Position numbers and translations under genes: made by a program. The notes under the pieces were generated by a model, which had not been told where the DNA came from, ran no database searches, and saw only the letters and a program-made list of their open reading frames with translations. A DNA stretch of 64,000 bases from a virus, in the IMG/VR virus record IMGVR_UViG_3300044695_003767; one strand, written 5' to 3'. This document shows, one piece after another, positions 2,453 to 38,560 of the stretch (the stretch's first letter is position 1; every line of letters starts with the position of its first letter).

Positions 2453-3110
2453 TTTACATAACTTCTTCAAGTTCTATGACGAGAAGAATCCTAATCACGT
2501 AAAGGCAATACAATGGTTAGAGGATAATCTACCAGTTAAGTATCTTGAAGATACTGTAGATTGGGCAGAGATTTATAGGGGAAAAAAGGGTAATGCGGCA
2601 CCAGCATCAGCACCATCTGCTGCCGCTCCTGTAGTTGGTGGTGACGATATGCCTATGATGGGCCTTAAATTAATCAAAGAATTTGAAGGGTGTCATTTAA
2701 AGGCATATCCAGATCCTCTCACAGGTGGACTTCCAATCACAATCGGTTGGGGTTCAACTCGTAAGAAAGATGGATCTGCATTCCATATGGGTGATACTCT
2801 CACTCAAGCAGAAGCAGATGAACTTTTGATTGAACAATGTAAGAGAGAGTTTCTTCCTGCACTTCGTAAAATTCCACACTGGAATGAAATGTCTGACGGC
2901 AAAAGAGGTGCTCTACTTTCTTTTGCTTATAATCTCGGTGCTGGTTTTTACGGTTCTGGTGATTTCAATACTATCACTAAGAGACTGAAAAATAAAGAAT
3001 GGGACTTAGTTCCCGATGCTTTATATCTCTACAGAAATCCTGGATCCAATGTAGAAGCAGGACTTGCTCGTAGAAGAAAAGCAGAAGGTGAATCTTGGAA
3101 AAAAGGTTAA
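2439..3110 (+). CDS. Endolysin, GH24 phage lysozyme
   Basis: IKEFEGCHLKAYPDP...TIGWG (E-D-T triad), ALLSFAYNLG, GLARRRKAE. Ala/Pro linker after the shared N-terminal domain. Confidence 0.9.
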   Translation: MARIDLHNFFKFYDEKNPNHVKAIQWLEDNLPVKYLEDTVDWAEIYRGKKGNAAPASAPSAAAPVVGGDDMPMMGLKLIKEFEGCHLKAYPDPLTGGLPITIGWGSTRKKDGSAFHMGDTLTQAEADELLIEQCKREFLPALRKIPHWNEMSDGKRGALLSFAYNLGAGFYGSGDFNTITKRLKNKEWDLVPDALYLYRNPGSNVEAGLARRRKAEGESWKKG

Positions 3111-3614: not shown

Positions 3615-3809
3615 ATGCCACGCGAATGGAATACTCCAATTCGACAACCTTGGAATCCTGTAATTAAAAAGTGCCTTGATGCTGTCGATGAGCACATCAA
3701 GGCATATATTAAAACAGGAGATGACTGGCACTTATCACAAGCAGAAATATTAAGAAAATATGTAAAAGATTTGAAGGTCTGGATACATAAACAAGAGGGG
3801 AGAGAATGA
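3615..3809 (+). CDS. Hypothetical protein
   Basis: GAGG RBS, 64 aa, coupled to the next gene. Confidence 0.65.
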   Translation: MPREWNTPIRQPWNPVIKKCLDAVDEHIKAYIKTGDDWHLSQAEILRKYVKDLKVWIHKQEGRE

Positions 3810-10192: not shown

Positions 10193-10260
10193 TCCTAAAT
10201 AACGAAGATTTGCCTTGTTGTAAATCTTTACATTGTCGTTTAGTACACAAAAACATTTTT

Positions 10261-11748
10261 ATGAAACTCAAACAACTGATGCTTGCACCTGTTGCTCTGG
10301 GAATGGTTGCTCCTGTTGCTGCGAATGCCGCAGACCTTAATATGGCAGCAGTCAACCAATATTCCACTTCGGAACAAGTCACAAGCATTACTCAACTGTC
10401 TGATGTCCAACCCTCGGATTGGGCGTATCAGGCCCTCAGCAACCTTGTGGATCGTTATGGTTGCGTGGCAGGATATCCTAACGGAACCTTTGGTGGTGGT
10501 AAGGCAATGACCCGTTATGAGGCAGCAGCACTTCTGAATGCTTGCTTGGATCGTGTAACCGAAGTGACTGATGAACTTCAACGTCTTTCAAAAGAGTTTT
10601 CTGAAGAACTTCTAGTTATTCGTGGTCGTGTTGATAAACTAGAAGCACAAGTTGGTCAACTTCAAGCAACTCAGTTCTCCACTACATCTAAACTTCGTGG
10701 TGAAGCAACCTTCGTTCTTGGTGGTGTAGAAGGTGCTCGTCTTGCTAACGGAACTAACGTTGGTAACACCGCTTTCAACTATGATGTTCGTCTGAACTTT
10801 GATACTTCTTTCACTGGTAAGGATTTGCTGAAGACTCGTCTGCGTTCTGGTAATTTCTCCAGTCAACCCTTTGGTTCTTCCTCGTCTCTGTTCAAACTGG
10901 ATAAGGCAGAAAGCACTTCCAATCAAGTGCAACTTGACCGTCTGTACTACCAGTTCCCTGCTCTCACTAAAGGTCTTAATCTGACTGCTGGTGCTTTGGT
11001 TCGTAACACTGAGATGTCATGGATTCCTACTGCATATAAGTCTGACATTCTCGACTTCTTTGCTGTTGCTGGTGCTCCTGGTGTCTATAACAAGGCAACT
11101 GGTTCTGGTTTCGGTGCTCAATGGGCACAACCTACTAAGAAAGGTAAGGGTGGTTTCGTTGCTGGTGTCAACTATGTGGCACAGAACGGTTCTGATTCCA
11201 CCAAAGGTGAATTTGATGCTGCTGGTGCTCTGAATACTCTGGCACAGATCGGTTATCGTGCTCCTCAGTACGGTATTGCATTCGGTTATCGTAATGGTAC
11301 TGAAGGAACTCGTATTCGTACCTTTAATGGTGTTGCTGGTAATGGTGGTACTCTTGCTGCTAATCAAACCTCCAACGGTTATGCTCTGAATGCTTACTGG
11401 CAACCCAAGAAGTCTGGTATCATTCCTTCTGTGAGTGGTGCTTATGGGTGGAACACTGTAGAAGGTCCTGCTACTCCCAAGGCTGCTACTAAGTCCGAGA
11501 CTTGGTTTGCTGGTCTTCAATGGGCAGATGTATTTGCCAAGGGTAATGCTGCTGGTTTCGCTATCGGTGCCCCTGGTAATGCTGCTTCCCTCACTAAGGA
11601 TGCTCTGATGTGGGAAACCTTCTATCGTTATCGTGTGAGTGACAACATTAGTATCACTCCTGCTGTGTTCTATGTGTCCAACAACCAAGGTCTGAAGAAT
11701 GCTTCTTCTAACTACGGCGGTGTGATTCAGACAACCTTCCGTTTCTGA
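10261..11748 (+). CDS. Cyanobacterial outer-membrane porin (SLH domain + OprB-type barrel; Som family)
   Basis: Signal peptide; SLH motif LSDVQPSDWAYQALSNLVDRYGCVAGYPNGTF...TRYEAAA; coiled coil; FSTTSKLRGE; C-terminal GVIQTTFRF. Confidence 0.92.
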   Translation: MKLKQLMLAPVALGMVAPVAANAADLNMAAVNQYSTSEQVTSITQLSDVQPSDWAYQALSNLVDRYGCVAGYPNGTFGGGKAMTRYEAAALLNACLDRVTEVTDELQRLSKEFSEELLVIRGRVDKLEAQVGQLQATQFSTTSKLRGEATFVLGGVEGARLANGTNVGNTAFNYDVRLNFDTSFTGKDLLKTRLRSGNFSSQPFGSSSSLFKLDKAESTSNQVQLDRLYYQFPALTKGLNLTAGALVRNTEMSWIPTAYKSDILDFFAVAGAPGVYNKATGSGFGAQWAQPTKKGKGGFVAGVNYVAQNGSDSTKGEFDAAGALNTLAQIGYRAPQYGIAFGYRNGTEGTRIRTFNGVAGNGGTLAANQTSNGYALNAYWQPKKSGIIPSVSGAYGWNTVEGPATPKAATKSETWFAGLQWADVFAKGNAAGFAIGAPGNAASLTKDALMWETFYRYRVSDNISITPAVFYVSNNQGLKNASSNYGGVIQTTFRF

Positions 11749-12912: not shown

Positions 12913-12998
12913 GGAAGATTGGCCGAGTGGTTGATGGCGATAGTCTTGAAAACTATTAACGTTAGTAGCGTTCCAGGGTTCGAATCCCTGATCTTCCT
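12913..12998 (+). tRNA. tRNA-Ser(TGA)
   Basis: ATAGT-CTTGAAA-ACTAT with a long variable arm. Confidence 0.95.
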
Positions 12999-13112
12999 TG
13001 TTACAAATATTACAAATTTTTAGATTTTCTTAATCTATATTTTTGTATCAACACAAACTTGACAAAGTAAAAGTACTCACTAGCATAACTAGTAGTATTC
13101 AACCTAAACCCT

Positions 13113-13262
13113 ATGGATCAGCACACCTACGATAATTGGGTGAAGATCAAGGAGACCTTCGAGCAGTCTGGTAATACGGACAATATGTTCTATAAGAGAG
13201 CAGTTGAAATAGTCAAAACTGGAAGAGATCCTTTGGCAAAGTTTTTTGGTGATGAAAAATGA
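13113..13262 (+). CDS. Small hypothetical protein (not in ORF track)
   Basis: MDQHTYDNWVKIKETFEQSGNTDNMFYKRAVEIVKTGRDPL..., 49 aa, downstream of TTGACA at 13059. Confidence 0.7.
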   Translation: MDQHTYDNWVKIKETFEQSGNTDNMFYKRAVEIVKTGRDPLAKFFGDEK

Positions 13263-13465
13263 TGGAACCTTTTGATGATGATTATGTAACTCGCACAGAA
13301 GTTCAGGAGATGATCGATGCTGCTATACGAAGACACAACCGTAATGCTTCTATCATTAGTATGTGCGTCGGTTGGGTGGTTCTTTCTCTATTTGCTGAGG
13401 GACTTTTAAGGTTGATTGGAGTTATTCCACCATTACTTCCATTTCTTAAAATTACTTTAAACTAA
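13259..13465 (+). CDS. Small membrane protein
   Basis: Acidic N-terminus, HNRNA, TM helix; ATGA overlap. Confidence 0.7.
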   Translation: MMEPFDDDYVTRTEVQEMIDAAIRRHNRNASIISMCVGWVVLSLFAEGLLRLIGVIPPLLPFLKITLN

Positions 13466-13578
13466 TGAGGACAATTACCGAAAAAGATTTACAAGAACTT
13501 CAACAAAGAGTTTTACAACAAAAGATAGATGAATTGTTTGAAGAACCTTCAACTTATGAGGACGAAGACAATGAGTAA
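13465..13578 (+). CDS. Small acidic peptide (not in ORF track)
   Basis: MRTITEKDLQELQQRVLQQKIDELFEEPSTYEDEDNE; TAATG overlap. Confidence 0.55.
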   Translation: MRTITEKDLQELQQRVLQQKIDELFEEPSTYEDEDNE

Positions 13579-13666
13579 TCTTTTTATATCTTCATTTTTA
13601 CTTTTTGGTTCCATTGCATTATTCATTTATTGGGGACTTACACACGCATATTCAGGAGTTGTATGA
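13571..13666 (+). CDS. NdhQ-like single-TM micro-protein (not in ORF track)
   Basis: MSNLFISSFLLFGSIALFIYWGLTHAYSGVV fits the IS-xx-L-xx-G-x-IA-xx-I-x-W-[AG]-L-xx-AY pattern of the NdhQ TM helix as I recall it. It lacks the NdhQ N-terminus. ATGA-coupled to gnd. Confidence 0.55.
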   Translation: MSNLFISSFLLFGSIALFIYWGLTHAYSGVV

Positions 13667-14706
13667 GAGTAGGATTAATCGGATTAGGTCGGATGGGAGA
13701 AGGAATGTCCCGTCGTATGATGAAGGCAGGAATTGAAGTCTGGGGTTATAGAAGAAATTATGAGAAAGCACAAGAAGCATATGAGAAGGGATATGTGAAC
13801 GGTGTCACAACTTCTATACAAACCCTTACTCAAGTGGTAAAACATACTCAGAGTGGAGTATCAGACAAATATGGTCCAGGCATCTTTATGATGGTTGTAC
13901 CTGCAGAAACAGTAGAGGAGACAATCAATGAGTTACTACGATATTGTAGTGAAGGAGATATTATTATTGATCATGGCAATAGCAATTTTAAGGACAGTCG
14001 GAAGAGAGCAGAACGTCTGGCAAAACTTGGTATCCAATATATTGATTGTGGCACTAGCGGTGGTGTTTATGGTTTGGATCGTGGATACTGTCTTATGGTT
14101 GGAGGTGGAAATACTGCAGTCGCCACTTGTGCAAAGATTTTTGATGCACTCTCCCCAGGTCTCGCAGCTGCCACCAGGACTCAATTTAACTCAGACGTAA
14201 CATCTGCTGAGTTTGGTTGGTTGCATTGTGGTGGTCCAGGTGCAGGACACTTTGTAAAGATGGTTCACAATGGAATTGAGTATGGTATAATGCAGGCATA
14301 CGCAGAAGGATTTAATATCATTAAGAACGCCAATGCAGGTGCTCAGTATGTCAGAGAAGGAGATGCGGAAATTGCCCCAATGGGAGATCCCGAAAGTTAT
14401 TGTTATGATATTGATGTTGCTGAGGTTGCTGAGTTATGGCGTCGTGGTAGTGTGGTTGGGTCTTGGTTACTTGACCTTACTGCTGATGTGCTACGCAGGG
14501 ATGGTGAGCTTAAACAGTTCTCTGGAGGTGTATCCGACAGTGGTGAGGGTCGTTGGACTGTTTCTGCCGCTGTGGATCTGGGGGTTCCCGCTCCTGTCAT
14601 TACTACTGCGTTATTTGAAAGATTTAACTCACGCAATCTCGGATCGTTCGGAGCAAAAATCTTAAACGGAATGCGTTACATGTTTGGTGGTCATCACGTA
14701 AGATAA
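13663..14706 (+). CDS. gnd: 6-phosphogluconate dehydrogenase (short form)
   Basis: GLIGLGRMG, IIDHGNS, DCGTSGG, GHFVKMVHNGIEY, DSGEGRWT, MRYMFGGH. Confidence 0.95.
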   Translation: MRVGLIGLGRMGEGMSRRMMKAGIEVWGYRRNYEKAQEAYEKGYVNGVTTSIQTLTQVVKHTQSGVSDKYGPGIFMMVVPAETVEETINELLRYCSEGDIIIDHGNSNFKDSRKRAERLAKLGIQYIDCGTSGGVYGLDRGYCLMVGGGNTAVATCAKIFDALSPGLAAATRTQFNSDVTSAEFGWLHCGGPGAGHFVKMVHNGIEYGIMQAYAEGFNIIKNANAGAQYVREGDAEIAPMGDPESYCYDIDVAEVAELWRRGSVVGSWLLDLTADVLRRDGELKQFSGGVSDSGEGRWTVSAAVDLGVPAPVITTALFERFNSRNLGSFGAKILNGMRYMFGGHHVR

Positions 14707-14717
14707 AGGAGTTATTA

Positions 14718-14885
14718 ATGGGAAGATTTAATGGATTATCGGAATACGAACTGAAACTTTTAGCAGATGCAGTCTGGTCAAGACAAAGGCATTTCGTTGC
14801 TGGAGATATAAAATTTAAAGAGTATGGAGCACTTCTAGATGAGATTCAGAAGTTGGTAGATTATAGACCAGGTGTATTTTTATAA
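14718..14885 (+). CDS. Small hypothetical protein (not in ORF track)
   Basis: AAGGAG RBS; MGRFNGLSEYELKLLADAVWSRQRHFVAGD..., 55 aa. Confidence 0.6.
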   Translation: MGRFNGLSEYELKLLADAVWSRQRHFVAGDIKFKEYGALLDEIQKLVDYRPGVFL

Positions 14886-14890
14886 CAATT

Positions 14891-15013
14891 ATGTTATTGT
14901 CAAAAGCACTTTTATTTCTTTCAATTCCTTTCGTATTATCAACACTCTACTTCGGAACACGAGGAGGATACTATGATACAAAAGATTACAACGGGAATGG
15001 AACCGCACATTAA
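14891..15013 (+). CDS. ndhP: NDH-1L complex small subunit NdhP homolog (not in ORF track)
   Basis: MLLSKALLFLSIPFVLSTLYFGTRGGYYDTKDYNGNGTAH: a TM helix plus the FGT[RK]xG[FY]YDTxxYxGNG[ST]AH C-terminus characteristic of cyanobacterial NdhP. Confidence 0.85.
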   Translation: MLLSKALLFLSIPFVLSTLYFGTRGGYYDTKDYNGNGTAH

Positions 15014-15191
15014 ACAGAGATATCAATTTGCCGCATCAGCATTTGTAAGAATGTGGGGGCACAGTTCATTACACGATCGTCGTATTATAGAATTTTGTGA
15101 AGTATGGGCTCATAGAACTGAAAATGCCCCACTGGGCAATACTGTTGATCAATATTTTTATTATGAGTTTAAAACTTGGAGGGGATATTGA
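14973..15191 (+). CDS. Hypothetical protein
   Basis: ORF overlapping the ndhP 3' end; the start may be at ATG 14997. Confidence 0.6.
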   Translation: MIQKITTGMEPHIKQRYQFAASAFVRMWGHSSLHDRRIIEFCEVWAHRTENAPLGNTVDQYFYYEFKTWRGY

Positions 15192-15304
15192 TGTTTCATT
15201 TGGTAGAAGTGCTGGCAGCAAGTCCAGTTTGGTTGGGTCTTTGTGGAGCAGGATTGACAGTTGCTCCGATTATGGGTATAATGCTTATACACCGAAATAA
15301 ATAA
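15191..15304 (+). CDS. Small single-TM protein (not in ORF track)
   Basis: MFHLVEVLAASPVWLGLCGAGLTVAPIMGIMLIHRNK; TGATG overlap. Confidence 0.55.
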   Translation: MFHLVEVLAASPVWLGLCGAGLTVAPIMGIMLIHRNK

Positions 15305-15312
15305 CGGTGTAA

Positions 15313-15386
15313 CGGAATGTAGCTCAGTTTGGTAGAGCACTCGCTTTGGGAGCGAGAAGTCGCAGGTTCGAATCCTGTCATTCCGA
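15313..15386 (+). tRNA. tRNA-Pro(TGG)
   Basis: CTCGC-TTTGGGA-GCGAG; GGTTCGAATCC. Confidence 0.95.
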
Positions 15387-15410
15387 TGGCCAGTTACTTC
15401 ACTGGCACAC

Positions 15411-15439
15411 TTGACATACAAGTCTAAACCACTTATAAT
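15411..15439 (+). promoter_or_regulatory. Consensus sigma70 (early) promoter
   Basis: Perfect TTGACA-N17-TATAAT. Confidence 0.9.
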
Positions 15440-15461
15440 AACTAGGTCAACAAACAAAACA

Positions 15462-15677
15462 ATGTCTCTGATCCAAAAATTCAAGAAAGATGTTAGCACT
15501 CTTCGTTCTGCTGCTAACGGGGAATTCTACCTTGATGTAAAGAGTCCGAAACTTTATAAAAAGGTCCGTCGTTTTTATGAAAACGAAGGAGTAGTATTTT
15601 CTGGTGACCCCCTTGACGACTACGAAATGCTTATGGAGTATGTCGCTAGTGATCTTGAAACCGTTGAGGTTGCCTGA
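15462..15677 (+). CDS. Hypothetical protein
   Basis: ATG 15462 lies downstream of the promoter; LYKKVRRFYENEGVVFSGDPLDDY. Confidence 0.75.
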   Translation: MSLIQKFKKDVSTLRSAANGEFYLDVKSPKLYKKVRRFYENEGVVFSGDPLDDYEMLMEYVASDLETVEVA

Positions 15678-34084: not shown

Positions 34085-34170
34085 TGACTGAAACTATTTT
34101 TACCATTACCTCAGTTGCCTTTTTTGTGCTTCTGTGTTATGCTGTAGAGAAAGTTGCGGAAACTTATTGA
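34084..34170 (+). CDS. 28-aa single-TM peptide (not in ORF track)
   Basis: [28 protein letters not shown]; TGATG overlap; exactly fills the hli-petF gap. Confidence 0.55.
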
Positions 34171-34171
34171 A

Positions 34172-34462
34172 ATGACATTCAACGTTACACTTCAAACCCC
34201 TGACGGCACCGAAACCATTATTCAGTGTGCCGAAGATCAATATATTCTTGAAGCAGCAGAAGATGCGGGAGTGGACCTTCCTTATTCTTGTAAGGCAGGT
34301 GCTTGTTCTTCTTGTGCTGGTAAAGTTGTCTCTGGTGAGATTGATAATGAAGAACAATCTTTCCTTGATGATGATCAGATGGCAGAAGGATTTGCACTTC
34401 TCTGTGTTGCTTATCCTAAGTCTGACTGTGTGATCCTGACCGAACAGGAAGAAAACCTGTGA
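34172..34462 (+). CDS. petF: Plant-type [2Fe-2S] ferredoxin
   Basis: YILEAAE...[16 protein letters not shown]...QSFLDDDQ...LLCVAYP. Confidence 0.97.
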
Positions 34463-34737: not shown

Positions 34738-34853
34738 ACAAAATTTTTACTGAAAAAGCAGAACGTATTAACGGTTGGGCTGCGATGATTGGATTCGTTG
34801 CTGCTGCTGGTTCGTACCTTGTAACTGGTCAAATTATTCCTGGCGTATTCTGA
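34734..34853 (+). CDS. hli: High-light inducible protein (not in ORF track)
   Basis: [39 protein letters not shown] (AERxNG, TGQIIPG). Confidence 0.9.
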   Translation: MNKIFTEKAERINGWAAMIGFVAAAGSYLVTGQIIPGVF

Positions 34854-34864
34854 TGGAGGTTAAA

Positions 34865-35392
34865 ATGCGTAGTGAAGGATATACTGTTCCTGAAGTTCAA
34901 TTTCAGTTTCGTGAGAATGGTGAGTTTGTAAACCGTACAACTTCAGAACTCTTCAATGGAAAGCGTGTGGTCATTTTTAGTCTGCCTGGTGCTTTCACTC
35001 CTACTTGCAGTGCCTATCAGCTTCCTGGATTCGAAGAGAGATACGATGACTTTATTAGTCTTGGCATCGACAATATTTACTGCATCTCTGTTAATGATGG
35101 GTTTGTGATGAATGCCTGGGCACAGGACCAGAACATTGATAAGGTCAAACTCATTCCAGACGGCAATGCTTATTTCACACGTTCTATGGGAATGCTTGTC
35201 AATAAGTCTAACCTTGGTTTCGGCGATCGCTCTTGGCGTTATGCTGCGGTCGTGGATAACGGAATCATCGAAAAACTATTCGTTGAAGAGGGGAGACGGG
35301 ACAATGCCGACACCGACCCTTATGAGCAAACTACTCCGGAAAATGTTCTAGAGTATGTGTCAGCAAATGTAAAAGTCGGCACTACAGTTTGA
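34865..35392 (+). CDS. Type II (Prx5-like) peroxiredoxin
   Basis: LPGAFTPTCS, SVNDGFVMNAW, PDGN, RSWRYA; GGAGG RBS. Confidence 0.92.
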   Translation: MRSEGYTVPEVQFQFRENGEFVNRTTSELFNGKRVVIFSLPGAFTPTCSAYQLPGFEERYDDFISLGIDNIYCISVNDGFVMNAWAQDQNIDKVKLIPDGNAYFTRSMGMLVNKSNLGFGDRSWRYAAVVDNGIIEKLFVEEGRRDNADTDPYEQTTPENVLEYVSANVKVGTTV

Positions 35393-35811: not shown

Positions 35812-36894
35812 ATGACTGCTTCAATTGCTTCACGTCAACAACAATCGAATATTTGGGAACAGTTTTGCAACTGGGTTACTTCAACCGACAACCGCATCTA
35901 TGTGGGGTGGTTTGGTGTATTGATGGTGCCTTGCCTACTTGCTGCTACAACTTGTTTCATCATCGCATTCATCGGTGCTCCTCCTGTGGACATTGATGGT
36001 ATTCGTGAACCCGTTGCTGGTTCACTCATGTACGGAAACAACATCATCTCTGGTGCTGTGATTCCTTCGTCCAATGCTATTGGACTGCACTTTTATCCTA
36101 TCTGGGAAGCTGCTTCCCTAGATGAGTGGCTTTATAACGGTGGTCCCTTTCAACTAGTTGTGTTCCACTTCCTGATTGGTATCTACGCCTACATGGGTCG
36201 TGAGTGGGAACTCTCTTATCGTCTGGGTATGCGTCCTTGGATCTGTGTTGCTTACAGTGCTCCTGTCGCTGCTGCGAGTGCAGTGTTCCTGGTCTATCCT
36301 TTCGGTCAAGGTTCTTTCTCTGATGCGATGCCTCTGGGTATTTCTGGTACGTTCAACTACATGCTTGTGTTCCAGGCAGAGCACAACATCCTGATGCACC
36401 CCTTCCATATGCTTGGAGTTGCTGGTGTGTTCGGTGGTTCTCTGTTCAGTGCTATGCACGGTTCTCTGGTTACTTCCTCGCTGGTTCGTGAAACCACTGA
36501 GAACGAGTCACAGAACTATGGTTATAAGTTCGGTCAAGAAGAAGAAACCTACAACATTGTAGCTGCTCACGGTTATTTTGGTCGCCTTATCTTCCAATAT
36601 GCTTCCTTCAATAACTCACGTTCGCTGCACTTCTTCCTTGCTGCTTGGCCTGTAGTTGGCATCTGGTTCACTGCTCTTGGTGTAAGCACCATGGCATTTA
36701 ACCTTAACGGATTTAATTACAACCAAAGTATTCTTGACTCCCAAGGTCATGTAATTAACTCCTGGGCTGATGTTCTTAACCGTGCTAATCTTGGTTTTGA
36801 GGTGATGCATGAGAGAAACGCCCATAACTTTCCTCTGGACCTTGCTGCTGCAAGCAACATTCCTGTTGCTCTTACCGCACCTGCAATCGGTTGA
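35812..36894 (+). CDS. psbA: Photosystem II D1 protein, intronless, Glu130 (high-light-type) form
   Basis: Full-length D1: [37 protein letters not shown] plus C-terminal extension. Confidence 0.99.
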
Positions 36895-37477: not shown

Positions 37478-37498
37478 TGAGAAATGACAATGGAGACT

Positions 37499-38560
37499 AT
37501 GGTTTCTTCTACACTTTCACAACCAATTTCACAGAGAGGATGGTTTGATGTCTTGGATGACTGGCTTAAACGAGATCGCTTTGTCTTTGTGGGTTGGTCT
37601 GGACTACTTCTTTTTCCCACTGCTTATCTTGCGCTTGGTGGCTGGCTTACTGGCACAACGTTTGCTACAAGTTGGTACACCCACGGGATTGCGTCTTCTT
37701 ACCTTGAAGGCTGCAATTTTCTTACAGCAGCAGTGTCAACTCCTGCTGACGCTATGGGTCATTCTCTTCTTCTACTTTGGGGTCCTGAGTCTCAGGGAGA
37801 TTTCGTCCGCTGGGTCCAACTTGGGGGACTCTGGCCTTTTGTGGCACTCCACGGTGCCTTTGCTCTCATAGGTTTCATGCTTCGTCAGTTTGAAATTGCA
37901 CGTTTAGTAGGAATTAGACCGTACAATGCTATTGCGTTTTCTGGGCCTATCGCTGTTTTTGTCAGTGTGTTTCTCATGTATCCACTCGGACAGTCATCTT
38001 GGTTCTTTGCGCCGTCGTTTGGTGTTGCTGCGATTTTTAGGTTCCTCCTATTCTTACAAGGTTTCCATAACTGGACGCTCAACCCCTTTCATATGATGGG
38101 AGTTGCTGGTATACTGGGAGGAGCACTACTCTGTGCGATTCATGGAGCAACAGTAGAAAACACTCTATTTGAGGACAGTGAGCAAGCAAATACATTCAAA
38201 GCATTTGAACCTACGCAAGAGGAAGAGACTTACTCAATGGTTACTGCGAACAGATTCTGGTCACAGATTTTTGGTATCGCTTTTAGTAATAAGCGTTGGT
38301 TGCATTTCTTTATGCTTTTCGTTCCCGTTATGGGTCTTTGGACTTCTTCTATCGGCATCATCGGTCTTGCTCTTAACCTCCGTGCTTACGACTTTGTATC
38401 TCAGGAAATTAGAGCAGCAGAAGACCCCGAGTTTGAAACCTTTTACACCAAGAACATTCTTCTAAATGAAGGACTTCGTGCTTGGATGGCTCCTGTAGAC
38501 CAACCTCATGAGCAGTTTGTATTTCCAGAGGAAGTTTTACCTCGGGGCAACGCACTCTAA
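37499..38560 (+). CDS. psbD: Photosystem II D2 protein
   Basis: [23 protein letters not shown]...[10 protein letters not shown]. Confidence 0.99.

Follow-up and report, generated by a model that had tools for sequence, protein, structure and literature searches.

The viral record IMGVR_UViG_3300044695_003767 (IMG/VR), a stretch of 64,000 nucleotides referred to here as the window, comes from a T4-like cyanomyovirus, one of the Synechococcus/Cyanobium type of fresh or estuarine waters. In this window the gene for 6-phosphogluconate dehydrogenase (gnd, 13663..14706, + strand, 347 amino acids, aa) is flanked on the same strand by two very small open reading frames (ORFs), one of 31 aa upstream (13571..13666) and one of 40 aa downstream (14891..15013). 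By sequence comparison, the 31-aa single-helix peptide is an N-terminally shortened homologue of picocyanobacterial NdhQ, and the 40-aa product is a full-length homologue of NdhP. An earlier note on this DNA had placed the two micro-ORFs around gnd, with the first coupled to it, and had described the 31-aa peptide as matching the transmembrane and C-terminal pattern of NdhQ but lacking its N-terminus, and the 40-aa product as a clear NdhP; all of these claims were borne out by the results given below, and the alignment to NdhQ profiles that the note had named as a check was obtained.

A shortened NdhQ homologue upstream of gnd

Residues 4-23 of the 31-aa product form an unbroken hydrophobic run that could be aligned, column by column, to the helices of host NdhQ and of Thermosynechococcus elongatus chain Q; residues 21-27 read W-G-L-T-H-A-Y, a motif that was invariant or nearly so in 35 phage and 29 host copies (W-A-L-H-T-A-Y in T. 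elongatus). The T. elongatus NdhQ was the sole PDB match of the peptide at E <= 10 (E 0.29, residues 4-27 against 21-44). Neither micro-peptide matched Pfam or NCBIfam at E <= 10, a result that is uninformative, as even the clear NdhP went unmatched there, and a homologue search with a 45-aa upstream-extended frame of the 31-aa ORF gave no candidate.

The relationship with NdhQ was traced through cyanobacterial genomes. The phage-only pattern F-[IV]-x-W-G-L-[TN]-[HN]-A-Y, scanned over 185,579 species with one genome each, matched 162 stretches, 140 of which were relatives; the best 80 of these 140 belonged nearly all to Cyanobium, Synechococcus or Prochlorococcaceae, many of them from lakes. 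The host ORFs (37-51 aa) begin with an acidic extension that ends in G-S-D-N-P and continue with the helix and then W-G-L-T-H-A-Y-P. A profile built on them matched three T. elongatus NdhQ sequences (E 3.9e-6, 2.7e-5 and 6.7e-4; next match 0.2), and the host ORFs are therefore NdhQ; their N-terminal stretch also aligned with that of the T. elongatus protein. The phage and host profiles aligned with each other at an hhalign probability of 98.9 (E 1e-17, 59% identity over 27 columns), and the window peptide was identical to its nearest host copies at 18 of 25 positions (72%).

Searches of 25 whole host-order genomes with the phage profile, run as a specificity control, yielded one strong match in 17 of them (E 3e-6 to 9e-11), which was always the NdhQ ORF, and matches outside NdhQ-like ORFs scored E >= 0.05. 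The phage profile, the only one used, found no NdhQ ORF in the remaining eight genomes (best E 0.05-0.97), seven of them of 1.6-1.7 Mb (G004, G009, G010, G012, G018, G021 and G022) and one of 3.0 Mb (G013). All eight have NdhP, and their NdhQ may be too divergent or missing. Besides the orthologous NdhQ, five host-order genomes of marine-Synechococcus size (2.3-2.9 Mb; G025, G016, G015, G023 and G008, loci L221-L225) have a further, divergent NdhQ-like ORF of about 42-44 aa, which ends in W-G-V-x-S-A-Y-P or W-G-L-F-N-A-Y-P (phage profile E 2e-5 to 5e-3).

When set beside cyanobacterial NdhQ (chain Q in PDB 6KHI, 6L7O and 6HUM, and the picocyanobacterial orthologues L084-L163 and L196-L212), the phage peptide has the same single helix of about 20 residues and the same C-terminal W-G-L-x-x-A-Y(-P). 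It is shorter than host NdhQ, with 31 aa here and 26-34 aa in other phages, and it lacks the acidic extension: the conserved G-[SA]-[DE]-[NS]-P, part of an N-terminal extension of 10-20 residues, was present in the host copies and in T. elongatus, whereas neither the window peptide nor any of the 42 distinct phage copies has it. The phage form also has a four-residue tail where gnd comes next, and the window gene differs from the host genes in being phage-borne, AT-rich and coupled to gnd.

A search with an alignment of four copies picked up a relative in 245 IMG/VR contigs, 80 of which were retrieved. NdhQ-like copies were also found in the isolates S-SRM01, S-SCSM2R and S-CAM9 and in the marine ACG-2014j and S-MbCM7, unannotated in all five. 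The phage family conserves both the start (M at 13571) and the stop, and a GAGGA ribosome-binding site (13558..13562, +) lies 8 nt before this ATG. The alternative in-frame starts at 13529 and 13556 were rejected because they are not conserved in the family and because the GAGGA site falls after 13556; they would add a basic stretch, unlike the acidic host extension. The 31-codon ORF has the signature of a real gene under selection: for the 42 distinct nucleotide versions, the ratio of nonsynonymous to synonymous substitution rates (dN/dS) was 0.24, and the entropy at codon positions 1, 2 and 3 was 0.63, 0.34 and 0.97, respectively, the third position being the most variable.

Coupling to gnd, NdhP and the variable slot

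The TGA of the 31-aa ORF (13664-13666) overlaps the ATG of gnd (13663-13665) in an ATGA arrangement that recurs in 39 viral loci, and through it the NdhQ gene is predicted to be translationally coupled to gnd. The AGGAG ribosome site of gnd (13654-13658) lies within the tail codons of ndhQ. A four-residue tail after A-Y, [PS]-[GE]-V-[VIL], was found only in the 39 loci where gnd comes next with the ATGA overlap, which makes the tail look like a side effect of accommodating the ribosome site of gnd. The gnd product has an N-terminal NAD(P)-binding Rossmann domain (NAD_binding_2, PF03446, 4e-35) and a C-terminal 6PGD domain (PF00393, 8e-22), and the window gene shares about 77-80% nucleotide identity with annotated cyanophage gnd genes.

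The 40-aa product matched T. elongatus NdhP (6khi_P, E 3.2e-9; 6hum_P, E 2.9e-8), with residues 6-40 aligned to 10-44 of 6khi_P, reaching the very C-terminus. It has one helix, after which the conserved NdhP C-terminus F-G-T-R-x-G-x-Y-D-T-x-x-Y-x-G-N-G-x-A-H is kept, and it matched phrog_2173 over its full length (E 2e-19). Exactly one counterpart was found in each of the 25 host-order genomes (E 1e-13 to 9e-7, 47-74% identity, over approximately residues 3-40). In comparison with known cyanophage NdhP, the window protein is a typical full-length member that differs in nothing material, and its gene lies beside gnd as in many cyanomyoviruses.

By tblastn, 375 phage records were found to contain NdhP, with gnd and zwf as its usual neighbours, on both sides or on one; in most of these records it was labelled "hypothetical protein", left unannotated, or lay under the ends of gnd or zwf annotations. 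Phage ndhP was called uncommon in a 2025 study, in which it was annotated in S-SCSM2R (PMC12801897), a view with which the 375 records stand in contrast.

The order of the genes around gnd was compared among related viral loci. Most of them share a run composed of a 49-aa ORF, a 68-aa ORF, a 37-aa ORF, ndhQ, a slot of variable content, a 72-aa ORF and a second 37-aa ORF. A census of the slot was performed on 62 related loci with at least 2 kb of downstream flank. After the NdhQ gene, 35 loci carried gnd and ndhP, seven ndhP only, three gnd only and 17 neither. In S-SRM01, the NdhQ gene is present without gnd or ndhP and the gene for the 72-aa ORF comes directly next. Other fillings included ptoX and a talC-zwf-gnd series (L044). 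One locus (L027) had two ndhQ-like genes (3001-3087 and 3630-3716) flanking an AOX/PTOX gene (PF01786, E 1e-12), with a 55-aa ORF and talC downstream of ptoX and the second ndhQ.

The earlier note had described an ndhQ-like/gnd/ndhP module; the arrangement is indeed present in the window, as it is in 35 of the 62 loci, but it is not a fixed unit. Rather than a fixed operon, the three genes represent a frequent configuration of a variable island in which ndhQ comes first. The NdhQ frame persists in loci without gnd and ndhP, and it is therefore not merely a gnd leader.

Proposed role in NDH-1L and competing explanations

In the cyanobacterial complex, NdhD is sandwiched between NdhP and NdhQ, which also touch NdhF, lipids and carotenoids (PMC6992706, PMC7021789). 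When one of the two subunits is lost, about half of NDH-1L falls apart into NDH-1M, and when both are lost almost all of it does; neither is present in NDH-1MS (PMC11794437). On the basis of these published host roles, the suggestion in the earlier note that the phage would stabilise or bias NDH-1L to raise ATP while running the pentose phosphate pathway is reasonable.

The pairing of phage NdhQ with NdhD1 was modelled by folding the phage NdhQ alignment together with an NdhD1 alignment based on the Cyanobium usitatum protein (L167:1108-2685; E 9e-243 to chain D of 6HUM); in this genome ndhQ lies on contig C20 and ndhD1 on contig C4. The pair reached a fold score of 0.49, against 0.00 for the best of three controls, with runs sharing at least 85% of contacts and a partner predicted local distance difference test (pLDDT) value of at least 75. 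Of 80 solved complexes, 58 reached the mark, as did two of 110 mismatched pairs; at scores of 0.60 or below, just seven of the 80 solved complexes did so, together with both passing mismatches. The predicted fold lends weak support to the incorporation of phage NdhQ into NDH-1L; an NdhQ-NdhD1 complex has already been solved, and the pass may reflect likeness to it.

The reading that we favour, with moderate confidence, is that phage NdhQ and NdhP would replace the host subunits, keep NDH-1L assembled and sustain ATP supply during infection. Both proteins would insert in the thylakoid membrane and flank NdhD1 at the positions normally held by host NdhQ and NdhP, which act there as the "molecular glue" that holds the NdhD1/NdhF1 module on the NDH-1M core. 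NDH-1L would then stay assembled after host gene expression falls, and the shared core might also shift towards it. Electron flow from ferredoxin to plastoquinone and proton pumping would go on, making ATP, while the phage pentose-phosphate enzymes would supply NADPH (through Gnd) and ribose-5-phosphate. A more far-reaching version appears possible but doubtful, namely that by supplying both glue subunits, with NdhQ re-engineered through the loss of its N-terminus, the phage would pull the NDH-1M core towards the NDH-1L of respiration and cyclic flow and away from the CO2-uptake NDH-1MS, coupling the shutdown of carbon fixation to ATP production fed by pentose-phosphate reductant.

Several observations weigh against the replacement of host subunits. 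The direct match to structure-verified NdhQ is non-significant on its own (peptide E 0.29, phage profile E 1.9), so that the link to the solved subunit depends on the host orthologues as intermediates. Without the N-terminal G-S-D-N-P stretch, phage NdhQ may bind or act differently. The window ndhP has no visible Shine-Dalgarno site, and because ndhQ, gnd and ndhP do not form a fixed unit, a joint function with gnd is not required.

The missing N-terminus is also the starting point for a different proposal, in which the shortened protein, seated at the NdhQ site or on free NdhD1, would weaken or re-tune NDH-1L as a competitor of host NdhQ and might, for instance, free the NDH-1M core or alter respiration. 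The acidic stretch is absent in every phage copy, a loss that is kept across the 245 contigs and is therefore selected and not accidental, and some relatives have the NdhQ gene without NdhP. However, in 42 of the 62 relatives the gene is accompanied by a host-like NdhP of full length, suggesting that the phage supplies the complex and does not sabotage it; identity to host NdhQ is 59-72% in its best-conserved parts, the helix and the C-terminal motif; and cyanophages generally maintain electron transport, as illustrated by psbA, psbD and petF in the window. The competitor role was rated lower because full-length NdhP usually accompanies the NdhQ gene, and we consider it improbable. It is likewise improbable, in our estimation, that the peptide is a host-derived, NdhQ-like membrane micro-protein working outside NDH-1L, whether bound to a different thylakoid complex or to a membrane protein of the phage, or serving as a small membrane anchor or chaperone for the products of the slot genes. 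Such a role would fit a gene that stands at the head of a slot whose cargo changes (gnd, ptoX, talC-zwf-gnd), the two copies placed around ptoX in L027, and the second divergent NdhQ-like paralogue of marine Synechococcus, which suggests that the fold is not tied to one job; but Gnd, TalC and Zwf, being soluble enzymes, need no membrane partner, the closest similarity of the phage peptide is to orthologous host NdhQ and not to the paralogue, and the NdhQ gene co-occurs with NdhP.

A simpler explanation would deny the peptide any function, the 31-codon frame serving solely as a translated leader for the delivery of ribosomes to gnd via the ATGA. The overlap in 39 related loci, the position of the gnd AGGAG site within the tail codons, and the restriction of the four-residue tail to loci where gnd comes next are what a leader would display, but frame, helix and motif are kept where gnd is missing (17 of 62 loci with neither gnd nor ndhP; S-SRM01), the dN/dS is 0.24, and a mere leader would not retain 72% identity to NdhQ, the host protein with which it is homologous. 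The gnd-less loci, the dN/dS and the NdhQ homology largely refute the leader, which we regard as very improbable. Replacement of the host subunits by phage NdhQ and NdhP remains the preferred reading.

Genomic neighbourhood and relation to known cyanophage genes

The freshwater Synechococcus phage S-SRM01 was the nearest isolate, with about 80% nucleotide identity over parts of 13000-15600, and the remaining nucleotide matches of the region were to Synechococcus phages and cyanophages, plus seven Acinetobacter phage records. Photosynthesis genes in the window are psbA (35812-36894), psbD (37484-38560) and petF (34154-34462), the last of which the earlier note had correctly listed. A 205-aa Redoxin/AhpC-TSA (peroxiredoxin-like) ORF (34775-35392) adjoins petF, upstream of psbA. 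A 512-aa ORF at 10210-11748 combines SLH (PF00395, 2e-8) and OprB carbohydrate-selective porin (PF04966, 3e-14) domains, the architecture of a cyanobacterial outer-membrane porin, here on a phage.

The gene run around ndhQ, which has the look of early genes, lies between two tRNA genes. A tRNA-Ser (12913-12998) is followed, ahead of the run, by a sigma-70-like promoter candidate (13059..13086, +; TTGACA, 16 nt, TAGCAT), proposed from consensus matches only (10/12). The run opens with the 49-aa ORF (13113..13262, +), which most related viral loci keep upstream of their NdhQ gene and which gave no match in the Pfam, NCBIfam and PHROG family libraries. It is followed by the 68-aa ORF (13259..13465, +; phrog_1096, E 1e-36), which has a C-terminal hydrophobic stretch, and by a 37-aa acidic ORF (13465..13578, +) with a weak phrog_2505 match, which is conserved directly upstream of the NdhQ gene and whose last codons overlap the start of that gene. 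Between gnd and ndhP lies a 55-aa ORF (14718..14885, +; phrog_2064) that accompanies slot genes in many relatives. The 72-aa ORF (14973..15191, +; phrog_593), whose true start may be the ATG at 14997, is the downstream anchor of the slot, and after it come a 37-aa hydrophobic ORF (15191..15304, +), conserved in related viral loci and with a weak phrog_1184 match (E 1.3e-3), and a tRNA-Pro (TGG; 15313..15386, +) that closes the run. Two perfect TTGACA-17-TATAAT sites (12/12 each, consensus matches only) were observed, one at 15254-15282, inside the end of the 37-aa hydrophobic ORF and just before tRNA-Pro, and the other at 15411-15439, just after it.

The earlier note had also suggested that the transmembrane micro-ORFs starting at 13259 and 15191 might be thylakoid modulators. 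Both ORFs exist and are conserved among phages, but neither matched any photosynthetic subunit in PDB or Pfam, and a thylakoid role is unsupported. Against PDB, the 68-aa ORF gave a chance-level match only (E 1.4), while the 37-aa ORF gave none and was not found in the 25 host-order genomes with the window ORF as query. Homologues of the 68-aa ORF were present in eight of the 25 host-order genomes, all of 1.6-1.9 Mb (E about 1e-10, 38-45% identity), some of them containing stop codons; this phrog_1096 ORF is thus a gene common to phage and host.

Cyanophage auxiliary genes are thought to sustain the supply of light-driven ATP and NADPH during infection, and those available for comparison include psbA, psbD, hli, petE, petF, ptoX, ndhI, ndhD, talC, zwf, gnd and cp12. 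Like the electron-transport and pentose-phosphate genes among them, phage ndhQ is host-derived, kept by phages and located in the same genomic neighbourhood; unlike the others, it encodes a micro-protein below the usual gene-calling limits, and NdhQ is a structural "glue" subunit, neither catalytic nor pigment-binding. Phage NdhP is already known in the literature (PMC6596454, PMC10452541, PMC12801897), and two of these papers cite phage copies as having been noted with the discovery of NdhP/Sml0013 (PMC6596454, PMC10452541). No published report of a phage NdhQ was found in a literature check that did not cover the original NdhP/NdhQ discovery paper. Phage NdhQ adds a phage representative to a host protein family already described, and a further gene to the auxiliary genes known from cyanophages.

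Photosynthesis auxiliary genes of phages are well known, yet micro-proteins under about 35 codons are routinely missed. With NdhQ and NdhP, the phage has the two small subunits by which NDH-1L differs from the CO2-uptake complex NDH-1MS, a pair suggesting that infection deliberately targets NDH-1L and, with it, cyclic electron flow and respiration. The phage form also offers a natural minimal NdhQ for probing the role of the NdhQ N-terminus.

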